From an uncultured Conexibacteraceae bacterium (lineage in GTDB: Bacteria > Actinomycetota > Thermoleophilia > Solirubrobacterales > 70-9): a stretch of DNA of 64,000 bases. Made by a program: the position numbers and the translations under genes. The stretch spans positions 160,592 to 224,591 of the forward strand of contig CAYOAP010000001.1 in assembly GCA_964401995.1 (NCBI GenBank), in the 5' to 3' direction. The notes beneath the pieces were generated by a model. It was given only the letters and a program-made list of their open reading frames with translations. It was not told the DNA's origin and did not search any database. Of the stretch, positions 4,480 through 56,528 are shown in pieces. Position 1 is the stretch's first letter; every line of letters begins with the position of its first letter.

Positions 4480-6237
4480 ATGGTCTTGCTGATCCTCTTC
4501 GGCTTCATCGCGGGCGCTGCCACAGCGCTCTCGCCCTGCGTGCTGCCGGTCCTGCCGATCGCGCTCTCGGCAGGGGCGACCGGTGGCCGGCGGCGGCCGC
4601 TCGGGATCGTCGTCGGCCTCGCGGTCTCCTTCACCTTCGCCACTGTCGCCCTCGTCTACGTGATCGCGGCCTTGGGCCTGCCGGGCGACCTGCTCCGCAA
4701 CCTGGCGATCGCGGTGCTGCTCGTCTTCGGGATTTGCCTGATGGTTCCGCCGCTGGCGGCACGGCTGGAGGCCTGGCTGAGCCGCTTCGCCAGCCGCGCC
4801 GGGGTCGCCGGCGGCAAAGGCGACGGCTTCTGGTCGGGGACGGCGGTGGGGGCCAGCCTCGGGCTCGTCTATGCCCCCTGCGCCGGGCCGATCCTCGCTG
4901 GCGTGATCACTGTCTCCGCCTCGCAGACATTCACCGCCGGCCGCCTCGGCGTCGCCCTCAGCTACGGGATCGGCTCCGCCTTCGTCCTCTATTTCCTGAT
5001 GCTCGGCGGCCGCCGCGTCGTCGCTCCGCTCGCCCGGCGCGGCATCGGCTTCCAGGTGGCGATGGGCGCGGTGATGGTGGTCGTCGCCTTGGCGATGCTG
5101 GGCAACTACGACGTTCGCTTCCAGAACTCGATCGCCAGCGATCTGCCCAGCTTCCTGGTCGATCCCACCCACAGCCTCGAGGACACCGCCGCCGCCCGCT
5201 CGGCCCTGGTCGACGTTCGCGGCGAAGCGGCCCATGGCGTCGGCGGCAGGGCTGCCGGCGCGCCGCAGCCGGCCGAAGGAGCGAAAGGCAGGCTGGCGTT
5301 GCCGGTGCTGGGGGTCGCCCCCGAATTCGTCGACAACCAGCAGTGGTTCAACACTCCCGGCGATCGGCCGTTGACGCTGCGCAGCCTGCGCGGGCGGGTG
5401 GTCCTGGTCGACTTCTGGACCTACACCTGCATCAACTGCCTGCGCACGCTGCCCTACCTGAAGGCGTGGGACGAGCGCTACCGCAAGGACGGGCTGACGA
5501 TCGTAGGCATCCACTCGCCCGAGTTCCCGTTCGAGCACGATGCCGGCAACGTCGCCGACGCGATCGAACGCAACGGCCTGCGCTATCCCGTCGCCCAGGA
5601 CAATGACCTCGCAACCTGGAACGCCTATGGCAACCAGTACTGGCCGGCCGAGTACTTCATCGACGCCCAGGGCCGGGTCCGCTACGTGCACTTCGGCGAG
5701 GGCTCGTATGGCGAGAAGGAGAAAGTCATCCGCCAGCTGCTGGCCGAAGCGGGCCACAAGGTTTCCGGGCCCGACTCGGGCGCCCATGGGATCGCGCCCT
5801 CGGCTGGGCTGACGACTCCCGAGACCTACCTCGGCGCCGCTCGCGCCGAACGTTTCATCAACCCGATGCTCTCGCCCGGGCTCCATGACTTCGGCAACCC
5901 CGCGAAGCCGCCGGCTGACGAATTCGCCTACCGCGGGAAGTGGAGGATCAGCCTCGAGTCGGCGACGGCGGCTGGCGGCGCCTCACTTGACCTCAACTTC
6001 GGGGCGCGGCGGGTCTATCTCGTGCTCGGCTCGCCCGGGCAGAGCCGCACGATGCGGGTATTGCTCGACGGCCGGCCGATCCCCGACAGCCTGGCCGGGG
6101 CCGACGTCCACAACGGCGTCGCCGTGATCTCCGGCCAGCGCCTCTACGACCTGGTCAACCTGCCCAAGGTCGGCCACCATGTCCTCCGGCTCGAACCCGA
6201 AACCGGGATCTCGGGTTACGCGTTCACGTTCGGCTAA
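4480..6237 (+). CDS. dipZ: DipZ-like fusion: CcdA/DsbD-type membrane thiol-disulfide transporter, thioredoxin-like domain and a C-terminal beta-rich domain
   Basis: Polytopic N-terminus with Cys motifs ALSPCVLPV and YAPCAGPIL. TlpA/ResA-like domain with FWTYTCINCLRTLP (CxxC). About 170-aa C-terminal extension, as in mycobacterial DipZ. Confidence 0.8.
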   Translation: MVLLILFGFIAGAATALSPCVLPVLPIALSAGATGGRRRPLGIVVGLAVSFTFATVALVYVIAALGLPGDLLRNLAIAVLLVFGICLMVPPLAARLEAWLSRFASRAGVAGGKGDGFWSGTAVGASLGLVYAPCAGPILAGVITVSASQTFTAGRLGVALSYGIGSAFVLYFLMLGGRRVVAPLARRGIGFQVAMGAVMVVVALAMLGNYDVRFQNSIASDLPSFLVDPTHSLEDTAAARSALVDVRGEAAHGVGGRAAGAPQPAEGAKGRLALPVLGVAPEFVDNQQWFNTPGDRPLTLRSLRGRVVLVDFWTYTCINCLRTLPYLKAWDERYRKDGLTIVGIHSPEFPFEHDAGNVADAIERNGLRYPVAQDNDLATWNAYGNQYWPAEYFIDAQGRVRYVHFGEGSYGEKEKVIRQLLAEAGHKVSGPDSGAHGIAPSAGLTTPETYLGAARAERFINPMLSPGLHDFGNPAKPPADEFAYRGKWRISLESATAAGGASLDLNFGARRVYLVLGSPGQSRTMRVLLDGRPIPDSLAGADVHNGVAVISGQRLYDLVNLPKVGHHVLRLEPETGISGYAFTFG

Positions 6238-27015: not shown

Positions 27016-28500
27016 TCAGGTCGCGGGGGCCAGGGGTGGTTCGGCCGCGCTCTCGCGGGCAGCCCGGCGCGACTCCTTCTGCGCGTACATCCGCACGTCG
27101 GCGAGCTGCAGGGCGGGAGTTGGCTCTGTCGCCTCGGCTGGGATCGAAGCCGATCCCCAGGCCGGGGAGACGTCGTATCCCGTCCCCTTCTCGGAGAGGG
27201 CTTCGGCCGCCATCCTGGTCACGCCCCCGAAGCGCTGCGCCGTGCAGTTGAGCAGGACGCAGAACTCGTCGCCGCCGACCCGGTAGGCGACTCCGTCGCC
27301 GTCGACCGCGTCGCGCAGCCGCCGTCCCAGCCTGGTCAGCAGCTCGTCGCCGGCCGGGTGGCCCAGGGTGTCGTTGAAGTTCTTGAAGCCGTTGAGGTCG
27401 AGGAAGATGACGAGGGCCGGCGCCGCCGCGCTTGTCTTGGCGCAGAGCTCCTCAAGGTCGACCTGCATCCGGCCGCGGTTGCCGAGGCCGGTCAGGGGGT
27501 CGGTCTGTACCTGCTCGAGCAGGGCCTTGTTCTCGCGCACGCTCATCCCCAGCCGCACGATCACGGCGATCATCGTGGCCGCCCAGAGCACGGTCGAGAG
27601 GCCGCTGGTGGCGCTGAAATACTGCATCGCGAAGAGTCCGATCATCACCCCGAAGAAGAGGGCGGGGACCATCAGCTCGCGCCAGCCGTCAAAGCGGGCG
27701 GAGGCCTGGATCGTGTCTGCCCGCGGCTGCCACATCTCGGCGCCGAGGCAGATCGCCGCGATCAGGTAGATCGGGTCGATCCAGTCGCCCGAGGGAAGCG
27801 TGGCGCTGGTCGATTGCAGGGTGTAGGCGATGTCGGCGGCGACCAGCGCCGAGAGCCCGGCCAGCAGCAAGATCCAGGTCCTGCCGGGGCGCCAGCGGGT
27901 GAGCGCGATCGCTCCGATCACCAGCGCCAGCATTGCGATGTCGCCGAGTGGGTAGGCGAGTGTGGTCGCCACCTGCAGCGAGGTGCCGGTCGCGTGCTCG
28001 GCGACGAAGTCGAAGACGAAGGCGGCGCCGAGCGCTGCCGTGCCGAGTGCCGCGATCAGGCCATCCATCCACAGCCGCCAATCGAGTTCGTCCGCCTTGG
28101 CTCGAACCAGCAGCACCAGCCCGGCGTATGCGAGCGGATAAAAGAGGAGATAGCCGACATCAGCCGGGGAGGGGTAGGGAGCGCTGGGGTTGCCTTCGAT
28201 CGCAACCGTCCAGTAGACCTCGGCCGCGCCCCAGGAGAGGATCGCCAGCCCGATCAGAATCCAGGCAGGGCGCTCGCGTCCGGCGCCGATGGCGCGCACG
28301 AGGCAGGCCAGCCCGGCGGCGATGATCACCGCGTCATAGACGGGACCGCCGAGGGCGAAATCGAGATTGGACCCGCCGATGCCGAGCCAGTCGTGGAGGG
28401 CGACCACCGTCGTGCCGCCCAGCAGCACGACCGTCAGCGCCTGGCGCGCGAAGCGCTCTGCCCAGGTACGGCCGACCGTCGAGTCCGCTGACGCGTTCAC
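27016..28500 (-). CDS. Diguanylate cyclase: multi-TM N-terminal domain plus GGDEF domain
   Basis: 494 aa with about 9-10 hydrophobic segments, then DPLTGLGNRGRM..FLDLNGFKNFNDTLGHPAGDELL..RVGGDEFCVLL. Confidence 0.85.
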   Translation of the reverse strand: MNASADSTVGRTWAERFARQALTVVLLGGTTVVALHDWLGIGGSNLDFALGGPVYDAVIIAAGLACLVRAIGAGRERPAWILIGLAILSWGAAEVYWTVAIEGNPSAPYPSPADVGYLLFYPLAYAGLVLLVRAKADELDWRLWMDGLIAALGTAALGAAFVFDFVAEHATGTSLQVATTLAYPLGDIAMLALVIGAIALTRWRPGRTWILLLAGLSALVAADIAYTLQSTSATLPSGDWIDPIYLIAAICLGAEMWQPRADTIQASARFDGWRELMVPALFFGVMIGLFAMQYFSATSGLSTVLWAATMIAVIVRLGMSVRENKALLEQVQTDPLTGLGNRGRMQVDLEELCAKTSAAAPALVIFLDLNGFKNFNDTLGHPAGDELLTRLGRRLRDAVDGDGVAYRVGGDEFCVLLNCTAQRFGGVTRMAAEALSEKGTGYDVSPAWGSASIPAEATEPTPALQLADVRMYAQKESRRAARESAAEPPLAPAT

Positions 28501-28600
28501 TGCCCTGGTATCGGCAGCAGATGGTCATTTCCCAACTAATAAATGGGCAAATTTCTCCGCCTAAAGGGGCGGGAGTCTCCAGTCATCTAAACTGCAGAGC

Positions 28601-28816
28601 ATGAAAACCGGAATTCACCCCGATTACACGCTCGCCAATGTGCATTGCTCGTGCGGGAACCAGTTCTACACCCGCTCGACCAAGGCCGATCTCCACGTCG
28701 AGCTCTGCTCTGAGTGCCACCCGTTCTACACGGGCAAGCAGAAGCTGGTCGATACCGGCGGTCGGGTCGAGCGTTTCCAGCGTCGCGCAGCCAAACACGC
28801 CAAGGCCGGGAAGTAA
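28601..28816 (+). CDS. rpmE: 50S ribosomal protein L31 (zinc-ribbon form)
   Basis: [33 protein letters not shown]. Near-textbook L31. Confidence 0.95.
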
Positions 28817-28819
28817 GCA

Positions 28820-29833
28820 GTGAGCCCAGAGGTGGGCTCGGCACAGGCAGAGGCGTCGTCGGCTTCCTCAAACGGGGCCGACTCGCTGCGCATGCCCGAC
28901 GGCGCCCTGGTCGCGAAACGCGACGCGCCGGTCGGTGGCCAGGCGGTTCTGGAGGGCGTGATGATGCGCGGCATCTCGACCTGGGCCGTCGCCGTCCGCA
29001 ACCCTGAGGGCAAGATCGAGATCAGCTCGGAGACGCTGGTCCCCTGGGCCAAGCGCAACCGCCTCTGGCGGGCGCCGGTGATTCGCGGCGTCGTCGCCCT
29101 CGGCGAGTCGATGAAGATCGGCTTCAAGGCGCTGGCGATCTCCGCCAACGCTCAGATCCCCGAGGATGAGGAGGGCGAGCCCGAAGAGATCGGCGGCTTC
29201 ATCTGGGGGGTGACGATCTTCCTCTCGGTGTTGCTGGCGATCGGGCTCTTCTTCGTCGTCCCGGTCGGGCTGACCAGCCTGATCAAGGACAAGCTCGGCT
29301 CGCCGTTCCTGTTTTGGCTGGTCGAGGGCCTGCTGCGGACGGGGATCTTCATCGGCTACATCGCCGCGATCAGCCGCCTCAAGGACCTGCGGCGCGTCTT
29401 CGAGTACCACGGCGCCGAGCACAAGACGATCTCCTGTTACGAGGCCGAAGACGAGCTGACCCCGGCCCGGGCCAAGCTCTACTCGCGCCTGCACCCCCGT
29501 TGCGGCACCAGCTTCCTGCTGATCGTGATGGTGCTGGCGATCTTCGTCTTCGCCCCGATCGGCCTCCCCGCCTGGTACTGGCTGGTCGCTTCGCGCATCC
29601 TCGGCATCCCGCTGATCGCCGGCCTCTCCTACGAGGTGATCAAGTGGGCCGGCAAAAACCGCCGCAAACGCTGGGTGCGGGCGGTGATGTGGCCGGGGCT
29701 GATGCTGCAGAACCTGACCACTCGCGAACCGGATGAAGAGCAGCTGGCGGTCGCGATCGCTTCGCTTGAGGCGGTCTTGGCTCGTGAGACACCCGCGGTT
29801 GCGGGCGAGCCGCACATCGAGATAGTCGCGTAG
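28820..29833 (+). CDS. DUF1385-family membrane protein
   Basis: GQAVLEGVMMRG, YHGAEHKTISCYE and HPRCGTSFLL signatures. Conserved position between rpmE and prfA. Confidence 0.8.
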   Translation: MSPEVGSAQAEASSASSNGADSLRMPDGALVAKRDAPVGGQAVLEGVMMRGISTWAVAVRNPEGKIEISSETLVPWAKRNRLWRAPVIRGVVALGESMKIGFKALAISANAQIPEDEEGEPEEIGGFIWGVTIFLSVLLAIGLFFVVPVGLTSLIKDKLGSPFLFWLVEGLLRTGIFIGYIAAISRLKDLRRVFEYHGAEHKTISCYEAEDELTPARAKLYSRLHPRCGTSFLLIVMVLAIFVFAPIGLPAWYWLVASRILGIPLIAGLSYEVIKWAGKNRRKRWVRAVMWPGLMLQNLTTREPDEEQLAVAIASLEAVLARETPAVAGEPHIEIVA

Positions 29834-29843
29834 GCGCTCGGTC

Positions 29844-30056
29844 GCGGGTCCTGTCGTGGGGGTTGGGTGGCCTCGCTTGCGCTGCGATCTGCTCCGGGCG
29901 GCGGGATGGCTTCGCTCGAAGGGACGAGACCTTGCCCTTCGCAGACTCCGCGACTGCGCGACACCACCCAACCCCCACGCCACCCGCGAGCGAAGTGTCC
30001 ACAGCCCGAACTGCATCAACTTCCCTACCTGCCAGATCGAGAAGTTGATGCAGTTC
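29844..30056 (+). repeat. Structured intergenic repeat, copy A (core plus 3' hairpin)
   Basis: Aligns by eye along its whole length with 56303-56521. It has a perfect 15-bp long-range helix (29856-29870 / 29964-29978). It also has a perfect 16-bp hairpin (30008-30023 / 30041-30056) with a 17-nt loop. Confidence 0.85.
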
Positions 30057-30184
30057 GCTGGCGGAGCTTCGGAGACGCTTGGAAGCTTCGAGGCGCTCGG
30101 GGCTTCCGGCGCTGGCGGCTCTTAGCGGCTTCGGGGTCTTCGAGACGCTTCGAAGCTTCTGCGTCCAGTCGGGCTCGCTGCTCG
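30057..30184. repeat. Spacer between inverted repeat copies, with two GAGACGCTT-S-GAAGCTTC units
   Basis: GAGACGCTTGGAAGCTTCGAG (about 30072-30092) and GAGACGCTTCGAAGCTTCTGCG (about 30142-30163). GCTGGCGG occurs at about 30057 and 30111. GAAGCTTCGA can pair with TCGAAGCTTC. Confidence 0.6.
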
Positions 30185-30328
30185 CGTGGGTGGCGTCGGG
30201 ATGGGGCGGACTCGCCGGCCCGAAGGCTGTGGAGGGCAAGATTGCAACCCTGCAGGGCGCGGTGTCCCTCCGCCCGGAGCAGCGCGAAAGGGCCGCCGAG
30301 GGTGCCCCATCCCGGCGACAGGCCCCGC
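30185..30328 (-). repeat. Structured intergenic repeat, copy C (diverged core, inverted orientation)
   Basis: The reverse complement aligns block by block with copies A and B: GCGGGGCCTGTCGCCGGGATGGGG.., CTGCTCCGGGCGGAGGG, CTTGCCCTCCACAG, CCCCATCCCGACGCCACCC. It has its own perfect 10-bp closing helix (30198-30207 / 30304-30313). Confidence 0.75.
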
Positions 30329-30370
30329 GCGCCCAGCGCCCCGCGCTTATGCCAAGGCTATGGTTGGCCC

Positions 30371-31441
30371 GTGATCGAGAAACTCGTTGAGCAGGTGGAA
30401 GCGCGGTTCGCTGACCTTGAGGGGCAGATGTCTGACCCTGCAGTGATCGGCGACAGAGAACGCTATGCCGAAGTTGGGCGTGAGTACCGGGAACTGCAGG
30501 CTGCACACGAGTTGGCCGGCGAGTGGCGGACGCTTAAAGACGATCTTGAAGGAGCGCGGGAGCTTCTTGAGGAAGGCGAGGACTCCGAGCTGCGCAAGGT
30601 CGTTGACGATGCGCCTGCTCGGTTGGAGGAGCTGACTGAGGAGATTCGGTTGGCGATGGTCGAGCGCGATCCGAACGACTCCAAAAACGTGCTGGTCGAG
30701 ATCCGGGCTGGGACCGGGGGGGACGAGGCGGCGCTGTTTGCCGGCGACCTCTACAAAATGCTGACTCGGTATGCCGAGGAGCGTGGCTTCTCGACCGAGG
30801 TGCTGTCGCAGTCGGCGGCCGAGGTCGGCGGCTTCAAGGAGGTCACCTTCGCGGTCAAGGGCGAGGGCGCCTACTCCGTCTTCAAGTACGAGGGTGGGAC
30901 GCACCGGGTGCAGCGGGTGCCGGAGACCGAGTCCCAGGGCCGCATCCACACCTCGACCGCGACGATCGCGGTGCTGCCGGAGGCCGAGGACGTCGAGATC
31001 GAAATCAACCAGGGCGATCTGCAGATCGACGTCTACCGCTCCTCGGGCCCGGGTGGGCAGTCGGTCAACACGACCGACTCAGCGGTTCGGATCACCCACA
31101 AACCGAGCGGGATCGTGGTCTCGATGCAGGACGAGAAGTCCCAGCTTCAGAACAAGGACAAGGCGATGCGGGTGCTGCGGGCGCGGCTCTACGAGCGCGA
31201 GCTGGCCGAACAGCAGGCGAAGATCGCCTCCGAGCGCAAGGCCCAGGTCGGCACCGGCGAGCGCAGCGAGAAGGTCCGCACCTACAACTTCCCCCAGGGC
31301 CGCGTCACCGACCACCGGATCAAGCACACCTCGCACAACCTCGACGGGGTGCTGGCTGGCGCCCTGAACGAGTTCACCGATGCGCTCGCCGCCGAGGAGA
31401 AGCGGCAGCGCCTGGAGACCGCGGCAGCCGCTCCGGTCTGA
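30371..31441 (+). CDS. prfA: Peptide chain release factor 1
   Basis: GTG start inside track ORF 29867-31441 (VIEKLVEQVEARFADLEGQM). PET codon-recognition tripeptide and GPGGQSVNTT (GGQ) motif. Confidence 0.95.
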   Translation: MIEKLVEQVEARFADLEGQMSDPAVIGDRERYAEVGREYRELQAAHELAGEWRTLKDDLEGARELLEEGEDSELRKVVDDAPARLEELTEEIRLAMVERDPNDSKNVLVEIRAGTGGDEAALFAGDLYKMLTRYAEERGFSTEVLSQSAAEVGGFKEVTFAVKGEGAYSVFKYEGGTHRVQRVPETESQGRIHTSTATIAVLPEAEDVEIEINQGDLQIDVYRSSGPGGQSVNTTDSAVRITHKPSGIVVSMQDEKSQLQNKDKAMRVLRARLYERELAEQQAKIASERKAQVGTGERSEKVRTYNFPQGRVTDHRIKHTSHNLDGVLAGALNEFTDALAAEEKRQRLETAAAAPV

Positions 31442-31444
31442 GCG

Positions 31445-32254
31445 GTGGGAAGCGTTCGCGAAGCGCTGGCGTCGGCCGGGGATGCCCTGGCGGCGATCGG
31501 CGTCGAAGACCCTCGGCTCGACGCCGAAGTGCTGCTGGCTGCAACCACAGGCTGGGACCGGGCGCGGCTGGCTGCCGACTCCACGGCCGAGATCCCGCCA
31601 TCCGCGGCGCGGGCCTTTGGCGAGGCGGTGCGACGGCGGCTGCGGCGCGAGCCGGTCGCCTACATCGTCGGCCGCAAAGGCTTCCGCCACATCGATCTCG
31701 CTGTCGACCGCAGGGTGCTCGTCCCCCGTCCGGAGACCGAGCTGCTGGTCGAGCTGGCGCTGGAGCGGGCCCCGCAGACGCTGCTGGACGTTGGCACCGG
31801 CTCGGGGGCGATCGCCCTCGCGGTCGCCGACGAGCTGCCGGGTTGCGAGGTGACGGCAATCGACACCTCGGCCGCCGCGCTCGAAGTCGCCCGGGCCAAC
31901 GCCGCTCGCCTCGGTTTGGCCGAGCGGGTCACCTTTCTCGACGGGACGGTTCCGGTCGAGGGCGCGTTCGACCTGACCCTGGCCAACCTTCCCTACATCG
32001 CCGAGCCGGACTGGCGCTCGCTGCAGCCCGAGGTGACCGAGTGGGAGCCGCGCGAGGCGCTGCTCGCCGGCGCCGACGGGCTCGACGCGATCCGGGTGGT
32101 GGTCCCGGCGGTCGGGCCGGGGACGTTGGCCCTGGAGATCGGGGAGGGGCAGGCGCCTGCCGTGGCCGCGATCCTCGAAGAGGCCGGCTTCGGCTCGATC
32201 GAGGCCCGTCCCGATCTGGCCGGGATCGAGCGGGTGGTGATCGGCTCGCGATGA
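31445..32254 (+). CDS. prmC: Release-factor glutamine N5-methyltransferase
   Basis: LDVGTGSGAIALAVA SAM-binding motif. Motif IV reads NLPY (31985-31996) where NPPY is expected. Conserved position after prfA. Confidence 0.85.
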   Translation: MGSVREALASAGDALAAIGVEDPRLDAEVLLAATTGWDRARLAADSTAEIPPSAARAFGEAVRRRLRREPVAYIVGRKGFRHIDLAVDRRVLVPRPETELLVELALERAPQTLLDVGTGSGAIALAVADELPGCEVTAIDTSAAALEVARANAARLGLAERVTFLDGTVPVEGAFDLTLANLPYIAEPDWRSLQPEVTEWEPREALLAGADGLDAIRVVVPAVGPGTLALEIGEGQAPAVAAILEEAGFGSIEARPDLAGIERVVIGSR

Positions 32255-55168: not shown

Positions 55169-56288
55169 ATGGCTGAGACCGCGTCAACCGAATCGGTGCC
55201 GGCGCGGCTCGCCGAGATCCGCGATCAGTTGAAGCTGCTCGCGGACTACCTTTGACCCGGCTGCGCTTGAGTCGGAGATAACCGAGCTTGAGGCCGAGAT
55301 GCAGCGGCCCGGCTTCTGGGACGAGCAGGAGGCGGCCGCCCGCACCTCGGCTGCCCACGCCCGCGCCCAGCGCAAGCTGAAGACCTTCCGTGAGCTGGAG
55401 TCGGAAGCGGGCGACCTCGCCGAGCTGGCCGAGATCGCGGCCGAGGACGAGGAGATGGCGGCAGAACTCGACACCCAGCTCTCCTCGGTAGAGCGCCGCC
55501 TGGCCGAGCTGGAGGAGGCGCGGCTGTTCAGCGGCAGCTACGACGCCGGCGATGCCGTCGTCACCGTCCATGCTGGGGCGGGGGGGACCGACTCCCAGGA
55601 CTGGGCCGAGATCCTGCTGCGGATGTACCTGCGCTGGGCCGAGCGCCGCGGCTTCGAGGTTGAGATGAAGGAGGCCTCGCCGGGGGAGGAGGCGGGGCTG
55701 AAGTCAGGGACCTTTATCGCTCGCGGCGAGAACGCCTACGGCCTCTTCGCCGCCGAGCGCGGCGTCCACCGCCTGGTCCGGATCTCACCCTTCGACTCTT
55801 CGTCCCGACGCCACACCAGCTTCGCTCAGGTTGACGTCGCGCCCTTGGTCGATTCCGGGGTCGACGTCGAGATCGACGAGACCGACCTGCGGATCGACAC
55901 CTACCGCGCCTCCGGGGCCGGCGGCCAGCACGTCAACAAGACCGACTCGGCGGTGCGGATCACCCACATCCCGACCAACACCGTCGTCCAGTGCCAGAAC
56001 GAGCGCTCCCAGACCCAGAACAAAGCGGTGGCGATGCAGATGCTGCGCTCGAAGCTGGTCGAGCTGGAGGAGCGCAAACGGGCCGAAGAGCTGGCCAAGG
56101 TGCGCGGCGAGGTCAAGGACGTGGCCTGGGGCTCGCAGATCCGCAGCTACGTCCTGCACCCCTACACGATGGTCAAGGACCATCGCACCGAGCACGAGGT
56201 GGGCGACGTGCAGCGGGTGCTCGACGGCGACATCGACGAGTTCATCCGTGACTATCTGAACAAGACCGCTGCGTCTTCAGCGAGCTGA
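55169..56288 (+). CDS. prfB: Peptide chain release factor 2, requiring a programmed +1 frameshift (55169-55252 joined to 55254-56288)
   Basis: Frame 0 encodes MAETASTESVPARLAEIRDQLKLLADYL and ends at CTT TGA C. The +1 frame continues DPAALESEITELEAEMQRPGFWDE. SPF tripeptide and SGAGGQHVNKT (GGQ) motif. Confidence 0.95.
55250..55256 (+). promoter_or_regulatory. RF2 autoregulatory +1 frameshift site CUU UGA C
   Basis: Exact CTTTGAC heptamer at codon 28/29 of prfB. The downstream frame is RF2-like. Confidence 0.9.
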
Positions 56289-56302
56289 TGGGGGTTCTGG
56301 CC

Positions 56303-56521
56303 GCGGGTCCTGTCGCCGGGGTGGGGTGGCCCTCGCTTGCACTGCGATCTGTTCCGGGCGAAGGGGTGGTTTCGCGTGTAGGGGTTGGGCCTTGCCCTCC
56401 ACAGACTCCGTGCTGCGCGACACCACCCCACCCCGGCGCCACCCGCGGACGAGCGTCCCAACTCCTAACCCCGAACTGCATCAAATTCCCTACCTGCCAG
56501 AGGGAGAATTTGATGCAGTTC
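56303..56521 (+). repeat. Structured intergenic repeat, copy B (core plus 3' hairpin)
   Basis: It starts 15 nt after the prfB stop. It has a perfect 14-bp long-range helix (56316-56329 / 56423-56436). It also has a perfect 16-bp hairpin (56473-56488 / 56506-56521). It is collinear with copy A. Confidence 0.85.
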
Positions 56522-56528
56522 GCTCGAC

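Follow-up and report, generated by a model that had tools for sequence, protein, structure and literature searches.

Dispersed hairpin-forming repeats fill the spacer between DUF1385 and prfA in an uncultured Conexibacteraceae bacterium

In the genome of an uncultured Conexibacteraceae bacterium (Actinomycetota, Thermoleophilia, Solirubrobacterales; assembly GCA_964401995.1), the genes rpmE, DUF1385, prfA and prmC follow one another closely, with gaps of 3 nucleotides (nt) between rpmE and DUF1385 and between prfA and prmC, and a gap of 537 nt between DUF1385 and prfA. The 64,000-nt stretch analysed here, called the window, is taken from contig CAYOAP010000001.1 (positions 160,592 to 224,591). 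An earlier note on this DNA, made from its letters alone, had singled out the 537-nt gap among closely packed genes, and gene calls with Pfam uphold it. We show that the spacer is an inter-operon gap, normally of 20-40 nt, that has been filled by repeats, and that its two main components, copies A and C, are independent copies of a strand-specific, hairpin-forming dispersed repeat. The reading that we consider probable is that these dispersed hairpins form a mobile-like family situated behind the upstream gene, and that they are not a leader of prfA. The family is new and previously undescribed; it is of a known kind of element and adds no new type of system.

Repeat copies in the spacer

The spacer is made up, in order, of copy A, a short hairpin (H2), a middle hairpin and copy C (Table 1). 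The inverted-repeat ends that the earlier note had described are found, with GCGGGTCCTGTCG at 29844-29856 and CGACAGGCCCCGC at 30316-30328, and an inverted repeat joins the spacer ends by pairing 29843-29875 with 30297-30329. Copy A carries the conserved blocks GCGGGTCCTGTCG, CTGCTCCGGGCG, CTTGCCCTTCGCAG and CGCCACCCGCG. An nhmmer profile of three copies places A at 29844-29995 on the plus strand (E = 3e-41), C at 30328-30179 on the minus strand (E = 2.5e-35) and a third copy, B, at 56303-56452 on the plus strand, behind prfB (E = 2e-42). Over the 64-kb window this profile gives no match beyond A, B and C, and a regular expression for the two repeat termini yields no further convincing copy there. 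With the covariance model described below, A scores 158.9 bits (29830-30007), B 147.0 and C 127.9, and the opposite strands of the three sites score just 13-32 bits, so that the orientation of the copies is unambiguous.

The repeat unit is approximately 150-175 nt long and is itself a hairpin, rather than the 485-nt fold-back, and each copy forms a long imperfect hairpin by itself. What the earlier note had delimited as copy A (29844-30056) is a genuine repeat, but that extent combines the repeat proper with the separate hairpin H2. The H2 hairpin recurs 3' of copy B, and the two examples differ by a compensatory change in the stem (CAACTTC/GAAGTTG after A, CAAATTC/GAATTTG after B). H2 and the middle part match only contigs of this population and no other locus, for which reason both were rejected as parts of the family. 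Copies A and C belong to different subfamilies, with their best relatives at different loci of the closest genome: A is 92.6% identical to the copy at L113 (loci and contigs are given by L numbers), and C is 87.8% identical to L100:2236-2412, with a truncated copy in L116 as its other best relative.

Folded as RNA, the spacer reaches -332 kcal/mol (z = -8.6, with 0/100 shuffles equally good). The folding check proposed in the earlier note thus gives a structure well beyond chance, in the form of four successive local hairpins. Taken alone, A folds at -98.8 kcal/mol, H2 at -30.1, the middle hairpin at -60.0 and C, in antisense, at -106.3. In the global minimum-energy fold A pairs with C; when pairs are limited to <=180 nt, the spacer attains -310.8 of the -332 kcal/mol (94%), so the pairing of A with C is possible but unneeded, and the local hairpins would be expected to form first during transcription. 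No sign of coding was found in the spacer repeats, in agreement with the absence of coding capacity claimed earlier.

A repeat family confined to Solirubrobacterales and related genomes

A scan of 185,579 species-representative genomes with the pattern CGCGGGNCCTGTCG-N30-42-TCCGGGCG returned 111 loci. Approximately 60 family copies are upheld by the profile in about 25 metagenome-assembled genomes (MAGs), with several copies per genome and at least 7 in one MAG; most members are single. All confirmed copies come from MAGs assigned to Solirubrobacterales, Thermoleophilia or unclassified Actinomycetota, and none of the pattern matches in Streptomyces, Proteobacteria or other groups is upheld by the profile. 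The claim that the spacer is built of repeats shared with other loci and set in inverted orientation is therefore confirmed. Viral contigs contain 0 matches to the repeat pattern, and carriage by phages was discarded on this ground. Rfam 15 has 0 matches in the window at the gathering threshold, and in the spacer at E <= 10 gives only two chance microRNA hits; the literature searched contains no description of such repeats in the Solirubrobacterales lineage.

Fifty-three copies were aligned (alignment A3), and the covariance model R1 was built from these 53. Copies A, B and C are in its seed alignment, and the independent three-copy nhmmer profile gave the ~60 further copies. In A3, the invariant or nearly invariant blocks GCGGGTCCTGTCG, CTGCGCGCTGCTCCGGGCG, CTTGCCCTCCGCAGCCT and CGCCACCCGCG lie between variable stems. 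The termini read GCGGGT...ACCCGC, and with an outer helix, GCGCTC/GAGCGY, the unit reaches ~175 nt. Single-nucleotide indels separate the copies, which therefore have no conserved reading frame. One subfamily carries TAGGCGC directly 5' of the hairpin (L042, L083, L093, L054, L060, L062, L102 and L020), and at L042, L083 and L093 the upstream gene ends on the TAG of this motif.

The structure of the repeat is conserved across the family. RNAalifold predicts 35 pairs on A3, 16 of them with compensatory double changes, such as a pair that is CG 29 times, GC 21 times and AU twice, and another that is GC 38 times and UA 13 times. Paired cells amount to 96.8% observed and 85.6% in shuffled alignments, double-change cells to 165 and 42.5, and the covariation score to 0.292 and 0.099, with slid controls at 0.035-0.068. 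Furthermore, G.U cells number 122 and A.C cells 15, two wobble pairs are kept in 43-45 of the 53 copies, and pairing reaches 96.8% on the sense strand against 91.0% on the antisense strand. The stems are maintained by compensatory changes, and the G.U pairs indicate which strand folds.

Turnover at orthologous sites

Similarity between copies is 0.79 within a genome and 0.735 between genomes; 22 of the 53 copies have their best match in their own genome, and some pairs are 95-100% identical. We retrieved eighty orthologous DUF1385-prfA loci from metagenomes, and a family member of any kind is present in 6 of the resulting 81. Among relatives with 83-99% identical proteins the site exists in several states: an empty spacer of 20-42 nt (L122, L123, L124, L128, L129, L131, L132 and L169), a miniature of ~70 nt that keeps both termini (L119, L120 and L130) and a nested copy (L125); the DUF1385 protein of these relatives is 83-89% identical. 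In the closest genome (L116, PrfA 98.6% identical) the spacer measures 130 nt and holds a truncated C-type copy in plus orientation. The comparison of relatives that the earlier note had called for thus reveals empty, partly filled and differently filled sites, which favours mobility; filled sites can be set against empty ones, but the target-site duplications that it had also proposed to test for were not recognised.

Other inserts occupy the same site. Long hairpins, perfect or nearly so, that share little or no similarity with the family lie at L135:1132-1260 and L137:4003-4208, and a hairpin at L121:4012-4167 is a marginal family match of 24.6 bits; the site seems prone to take up hairpin-forming inserts of various kinds. 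Between 0.9 and 2.5 kb separate DUF1385 from prfA in L127, L139, L142, L148, L155, L158, L160, L166, L173 and L174, and in L127 (1126-2004) the insert is an open reading frame (ORF) of 292 amino acids (aa) with a hydrophobic, signal-peptide-like N-terminus. Since whole genes have been inserted here in L127 and several more distant relatives, the DUF1385-prfA junction is a boundary that admits entire genes and not a tight operon junction, as would be expected between transcription units. Similarly, the site downstream of prfB is occupied in L046 by a single copy and in L065 by a pair, in genomes whose PrfB is 86-90% identical to that of the window.

Partial tandem or nested copies occur at L101 (5973-6039 with 5816-5961), L068 (292-357 with 149-280) and L125 (2975-3156). 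In these a complete copy comes after a 5' half (model positions 2-70), and the rest of the first copy is absent further downstream. L101 and L068 had been considered as nested insertions that would reveal the ends of the element or a target-site duplication, and were set aside because they are tandem duplications of the 5' half.

Copies lie behind stop codons of core genes

The positions of copies relative to genes were counted with a crude ORF caller based on GC3 (G+C at third codon positions). By this count, 26 copies, A and B included, start 2-32 nt past the stop of a co-oriented gene. The stop of a convergent gene adjoins the 3' end in 8 copies, of which 4 also lie behind a co-oriented stop and 4 adjoin solely the convergent gene's stop. 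Genes upstream of sense copies include those for PEPCK, GlnA, NuoD, IspG, OGDH, carboxyltransferases, aldehyde dehydrogenases and RelA/SpoT, among others. Because these are diverse core genes, the adjacency to prfA and prfB appears coincidental, and a functional link of the repeat to release factors was abandoned given that 20 other sense copies follow unrelated housekeeping genes. TAG stops precede 16 of the 26 copies, compared with a 37% background (p ~0.009); this excess probably derives largely from the TAGGCGC 5' flank of the one subfamily, which sometimes supplies the stop, and was not accepted as a link to RF1.

Seven inverted pairs, found at different loci and in different genomes, are all arranged with a plus copy followed by a minus copy, and 4 of the 7 lie between convergent genes, each of which has one sense copy. 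The DNA between the paired copies is unrelated from locus to locus in all 7 convergent pairs. At L100:2420-2470, a canonical bidirectional intrinsic terminator (CAAAAGGCGTCGCATATCGACGCCTTTTG) stands between two convergent copies, which therefore lie inside 3' untranslated regions (UTRs). The lineage uses ordinary terminators beside the repeats, as this locus illustrates. Within 29834-30370 of the window there is no terminator-like site, and no T run follows A, H2, the middle hairpin or B.

An antisense copy is also found inside a large membrane-protein gene downstream of murJ, where the frame is open and in register in 7/7 orthologues (Table 1). There the repeat encodes a loop of ~50 aa (LLPRxASGWG...SLRPEQR...DDRTRG) after an N-terminal part of ~85 aa, which starts MLDLPRYLLGVAE and is apparently membrane-spanning. 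Direct pairs of copies 1.8-2 kb apart flank a membrane-protein gene and not a transposase.

A predicted promoter between the repeats and prfA

Conserved sequence immediately upstream of prfA points to transcription that begins at the gene itself. A -10-like TANNNT hexamer (motif as defined in PMC3898074) lies 6-9 nt ahead of the prfA start codon, with its first base 11-16 nt upstream and mostly at -13, in 50 of 59 orthologues, compared with 1.5 in shuffles, and a Shine-Dalgarno-like motif is present in 3 of the 59. The hexamer is kept in empty and filled spacers alike, and its position is always downstream of the repeat. In Mycobacterium tuberculosis, 73% of primary transcription start sites have TANNNT 7-12 bp upstream, and a conserved -35 element is missing; leaderless mRNAs are common in mycobacteria (PMC3898074). 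Given the conserved TANNNT and the missing Shine-Dalgarno motif, prfA probably gives a leaderless mRNA from a promoter of its own that lies downstream of the repeats. The start of prfB, ATG 55170, has TAAGCT at -12 to -7 and no Shine-Dalgarno motif, and this gene is probably leaderless too. A scan of 28500-30700 for sigma-70 consensus promoters gave 0 matches, the consensus being uninformative for actinobacterial promoters that have only a -10 element.

The earlier note had reasoned that a prfA promoter downstream of 30328 would place the repeats outside the prfA mRNA; TATGGT at 30359-30364 agrees with this in silico, as a prediction from sequence. Copy C extends to roughly -28 relative to the inferred prfA start and so overlaps the -35 region.

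The start of prfA is GTG 30371, as residue 1 of the PrfA query begins the alignment in 59/59 orthologues. Public annotation of metagenome contigs begins the gene at ATG 30428 (337 aa) instead of this conserved start (356 aa), a typical mis-call of a leaderless non-ATG start. The prfA frame is open across the entire 537-nt spacer (179 codons; ORF 29867-31441), and a sequence of this length at 70% G+C is stop-free by chance in a few per cent of cases. In L116, L119 and L120 the codon but one ahead of GTG is out of the question as coding sequence, since a stop stands in frame one codon before the start, and we judge the stop-free frame in the window to be due to chance. An N-terminally extended RF1 read through the repeats was rejected for the same reason and because the orthologues align from residue 1.

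Genes and features of the window

The features discussed above are collected in Table 1. In prfB, a programmed +1 frameshift site, CTTTGAC (CTT TGA C), lies at 55248-55254. The DUF1385 protein has homologues labelled Solirubrobacterales, and an identical copy is encoded on the ENA soil-metagenome contigs L001-L007, of which L001-L004 also contain the window's spacer. The ENA/Logan contigs L005, L006 and L007, three independent assemblies of this same population, end 32, 129 and 234 nt past the DUF1385 stop, within or at the spacer. These ends suggest either that short-read assembly fails at the repeats or that members of the population differ in the spacer.

Table 1 Coordinates of genes, repeat copies and related features; positions refer to the window unless a locus is named
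Feature	Position	Strand	Remarks
rpmE (ribosomal protein L31)	28601..28816	+	Pfam Ribosomal_L31, E = 2e-31
DUF1385 (YqhQ-like) gene	28820..29833	+	Pfam DUF1385, E = 1.4e-83; stop TAG 29831-29833
Repeat copy A	29834..29998	+	Sense to DUF1385, directly 3' of its stop; long imperfect hairpin
Hairpin H2	30007..30057	+	17-20-bp stem; inverted repeat
Middle hairpin	30063..30172	+	Repeated GAGACGCTTsGAAGCTTC motif; direct and inverted repeat
Repeat copy C	30166..30343	-	Antisense to flanking genes; 5' end faces prfA
TATGGT, putative -10 box of a leaderless prfA transcript	30359..30364	+	Occupies -12 to -7, counted from the G of GTG
prfA (RF1), GTG start	30371..31441	+	Pfam PCRF and RF-1
prmC (release-factor methyltransferase)	31445..32254	+	Pfam PrmC_N and MTS
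prfB (RF2)	55170..56288	+	Sequence and translation; Pfam PCRF and RF-1 for 55299-56288
Repeat copy B	56289..56466	+	Sense to prfB; core (56303-56455) begins 14 nt past the TGA stop
Second H2 copy	56472..56522	+	3' of copy B
In-gene antisense copy	L118:6256-6403		Membrane-protein gene
In-gene antisense copy	L010:7317-7465		Membrane-protein gene
In-gene antisense copy	L024:3838-3982		Membrane-protein gene
In-gene antisense copy	L045:3582-3730		Membrane-protein gene
In-gene antisense copy	L095:607-755		Membrane-protein gene
In-gene antisense copy	L112:1376-1518		Membrane-protein gene
In-gene antisense copy	L114:7393-7542		Membrane-protein gene

Proposed explanation

[quoted passage not shown] Its copies would spread by transposition or a copying mechanism and would accumulate just past stop codons, oriented with the upstream gene. 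Such accumulation in sense implies that they would become part of the transcribed 3' UTR, with the sense strand folding there into a long hairpin, and hairpins of this sort at a 3' end may protect, pause or terminate the transcript. At the locus studied here, copy A, together with H2 and the middle hairpin, would form the structured 3' end of the rpmE-DUF1385 transcript, and this end would probably protect or end that RNA and insulate the next transcription unit. The genes prfA and prmC would be expressed from a separate, leaderless mRNA starting from TATGGT between copy C and the GTG. With the -10 box in that position, the repeats would be outside the prfA mRNA, and copy C would overlap only the poorly constrained -35 region of prfA.

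Several points weigh against this explanation. Transcription of the copies, the leaderless start of prfA and the role as a terminator or stabiliser are deduced from sequence, and the context statistics depend on the crude GC3-based ORF caller. The conservation of unpaired blocks across genera and the occupied prfB site in the window, L046 and L065 may mean that the repeat has a host function. No consistent target-site duplication appears in 50 flank pairs or in comparisons of filled with empty sites, where duplications of 2-3 bp are undetectable because the termini are CG-rich and self-complementary. A phmmer search of 12,534 six-frame ORFs from the loci (~0.9 Mb, in 8-kb windows) found no Y1- or RAYT-like ORF at E < 1, a weak test with the E. 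coli RAYT and IS608 TnpA sequences as queries. The examined loci also yielded no autonomous element with the repeat termini and no parent insertion sequence. Finally, the copies have no U-tract, and a terminator-like site, in each case a weak match, lies within 160 nt downstream in 7 of 61 copies; for these two reasons the copies are not canonical intrinsic terminators. The proposition that copies are always followed by a terminator was dropped on the same count.

Alternative explanations

One alternative holds that the family does not count, or has ceased to count, as selfish DNA, and is instead a structured, host-selected RNA module of 3' UTRs whose conserved loops bind a protein or direct an RNase and whose many copies selection maintains. 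The unpaired blocks GTCCTGTCG, CTGCTCCGGGCG, CTTGCCCTCCGCAG and CGCCACCCGCG are invariant or nearly so in ~25 genomes while the stems covary, the G.U bias favours the sense strand, sense copies directly follow the stops of core metabolic genes, and the prfB-downstream site is occupied in three genomes (PrfB 86-90% identical to that of the window). Orthologous sites are often empty, however, and a host-selected module sits poorly with antisense copies, namely C, the second copies in L058 and L065, the four beside convergent genes and the copy within a gene. Truncated, nested and half-duplicated copies also exist, near-identical copies within one genome suggest recent copying, and conserved loops are equally expected of transposase recognition sites. 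We regard this alternative as unlikely. A bolder form of it, which we find decidedly doubtful, would make the repeat a novel type of structured RNA module that many core genes of Solirubrobacterales carry in their 3' UTRs. The invariant loops GUCCUGUCG, CUGCUCCGGGCG and CUUGCCCUCCGCAG would then bind a dedicated protein or nuclease that sets the fate of mRNA 3' ends genome-wide, and antisense copies, C among them, would shield the following promoter in genomes whose genes are largely leaderless.

A different question is how a mobile repeat would move. REPIN-like movement of single-stranded DNA, by a RAYT or an IS200-IS605-type Y1 (HUH) transposase that recognises the single-stranded hairpin, would trace the strand asymmetry to recognition of the DNA instead of to RNA folding. 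It is in keeping with the strand-specific hairpin and its conserved bulges, the lack of a recognised target-site duplication, extragenic copies just past stops and inverted doublets. Populations of the repeat persist in the lineage with genome-specific subfamilies, and one subfamily has TAGG just 5' of the hairpin, which bears a possible resemblance to the GTAG of REPs. Yet no Y1-like ORF emerged from the ~0.9 Mb of loci in the weak test described above, the unit far exceeds a REP in length, and its arms do not represent one REP in two copies. In addition, the orientation of the convergent pairs follows transcription and would not be given by replication-strand bias alone. This route of mobilisation is rather improbable in our judgement.

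The earlier note had likened the whole ~485-nt block of A, H2, the middle part and C to one non-autonomous fold-back transposon inserted between DUF1385 and prfA. Its inverted-repeat ends and the pairing of A with C in the global minimum-energy fold fit that description, as do convergent pairs of similar total length (403-487 nt) at six other loci and the shared relative orientation of 7/7 pairs. The block is nevertheless not one mobile unit, because the segments between the copies are unrelated across loci, that of L100 containing an ordinary bidirectional terminator between convergent genes, and because nothing beyond this population matches H2 or the middle part. Family members mostly occur alone, A and C come from separate subfamilies and have their best relatives at separate loci, and four of the pairs simply lie behind two convergent genes with one copy per gene. 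A single fold-back transposon is accordingly very unlikely.

Least probable of all, and by our estimate barely credible, is the large structured 5' leader of prfA that the earlier note had also envisaged, a cis-regulatory attenuator or riboswitch-like element reached by read-through from rpmE-DUF1385: the very stable fold ending 27-42 nt before the start codon, the stop-free prfA frame and the lack of a canonical terminator make it conceivable, but relatives with 84-89% identical proteins have just 20-42 nt at the site (eight are empty among those studied closely, and 6/81 orthologous loci hold a family member), the closest relative has 130 nt with a different, truncated copy, the repeat also follows many unrelated housekeeping genes, Rfam has no match, a stop stands in frame just ahead of the start codon in L116, L119 and L120, and the -10-like box (TANNNT in 50/59, Shine-Dalgarno-like motif in 3/59; TATGGT downstream of the repeat) points to a leaderless prfA.

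Relation to known repeats

The mobile-like family that we favour shares features with several described groups of bacterial repeats. REP, BIME and REPIN sequences are extragenic hairpins that occur just past stop codons, often as inverted doublets, and are plausible protectors of RNA 3' ends; they form long-lived, lineage-specific populations without target-site duplications. The present repeats are likewise extragenic hairpins behind stops, with inverted doublets, restriction to a lineage and no recognised target-site duplication. In contrast to REPs, however, the unit measures 150-175 nt rather than 20-40 nt and is one asymmetric hairpin with distinct 5' and 3' arms; as its units are not short, it fails the definition of a REP. 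Whereas REPINs are doublets as well, those of this family are 100-190 nt apart with unrelated sequence between them, and no RAYT is present in the loci examined, a weak test as noted.

ERIC, also known as IRU, is a 127-bp repeat of Enterobacteria. Both ERIC and the present family are non-coding, imperfect palindromes of ~100-150 nt with tens of copies per genome, found in transcribed intergenic regions and often at the 3' ends of genes; in both, copy number and occupancy vary among relatives, and occasional copies are intragenic. ERIC sequences have orientation-dependent effects on the stability of the upstream mRNA (PMC10969869). The family described here has no sequence similarity to ERIC and belongs to another phylum (Actinomycetota, Thermoleophilia), and it differs in its sense bias behind stops, its conserved internal-loop blocks and its miniatures that keep only the termini.

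RPE are, like the present repeats, palindromes of ~150 bp able to sit in frame within genes, and in-frame insertion in protein-coding genes is documented for them (PMC10969869). Our family is mostly intergenic, with one intragenic site, and its host lineage is unrelated; given this host and 70% G+C, sequence homology to RPE families is implausible. Bacterial MITEs such as Correia/CREE, RUP and QMITE resemble the family in being small (<300 bp), non-coding and multi-copy, in having terminal inverted repeats (trivially in this case, the whole unit being a palindrome) and RNA folding, and in showing presence/absence polymorphism, clustering and partial nesting. QMITE2 lies mainly in 3' UTRs (PMC10969869), as the present repeats probably do. 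Unlike MITEs, which have terminal repeats around an unstructured core, the family consists in its entirety of a covarying hairpin, and it has no recognised target-site duplication and no known parent insertion sequence.

Intrinsic terminators share with the family G+C-rich hairpins a few nt past the stop in the orientation of the gene; the repeats differ from them in lacking a U-tract and in a hairpin ~10 times longer, and a true terminator adjoins copies in L100. Integron attC sites, which have R''/R' core sites and stand behind promoterless cassette genes, were also considered and rejected: the RYYYAAC ... GTTRRRY signature of attC is replaced here by the termini GCGGGTCCTGTCG ... CGCCACCCGC, and the upstream genes are core housekeeping genes.

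Implications

On the explanation that we consider probable, a 537-nt gap within a packed cluster of translation-factor genes would be accounted for without invoking regulation of prfA. The start of prfA is corrected from ATG 30428 to GTG 30371. The covariance model R1 and the alignment A3 are usable for Solirubrobacterales, an abundant and almost uncultured soil lineage, in which repeats of this sort interrupt short-read assemblies, give rise to spurious ORFs and can be used as strain markers. The combination of strong and unusually clear covariation, invariant loops, sense bias, miniatures and an in-frame copy, in an under-studied phylum, makes the family a good case in which to ask whether a repeat is selfish DNA, domesticated RNA or both. 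Furthermore, the leaderless signature of prfA and prfB, which is probable for both genes, informs the view of gene expression in Thermoleophilia.

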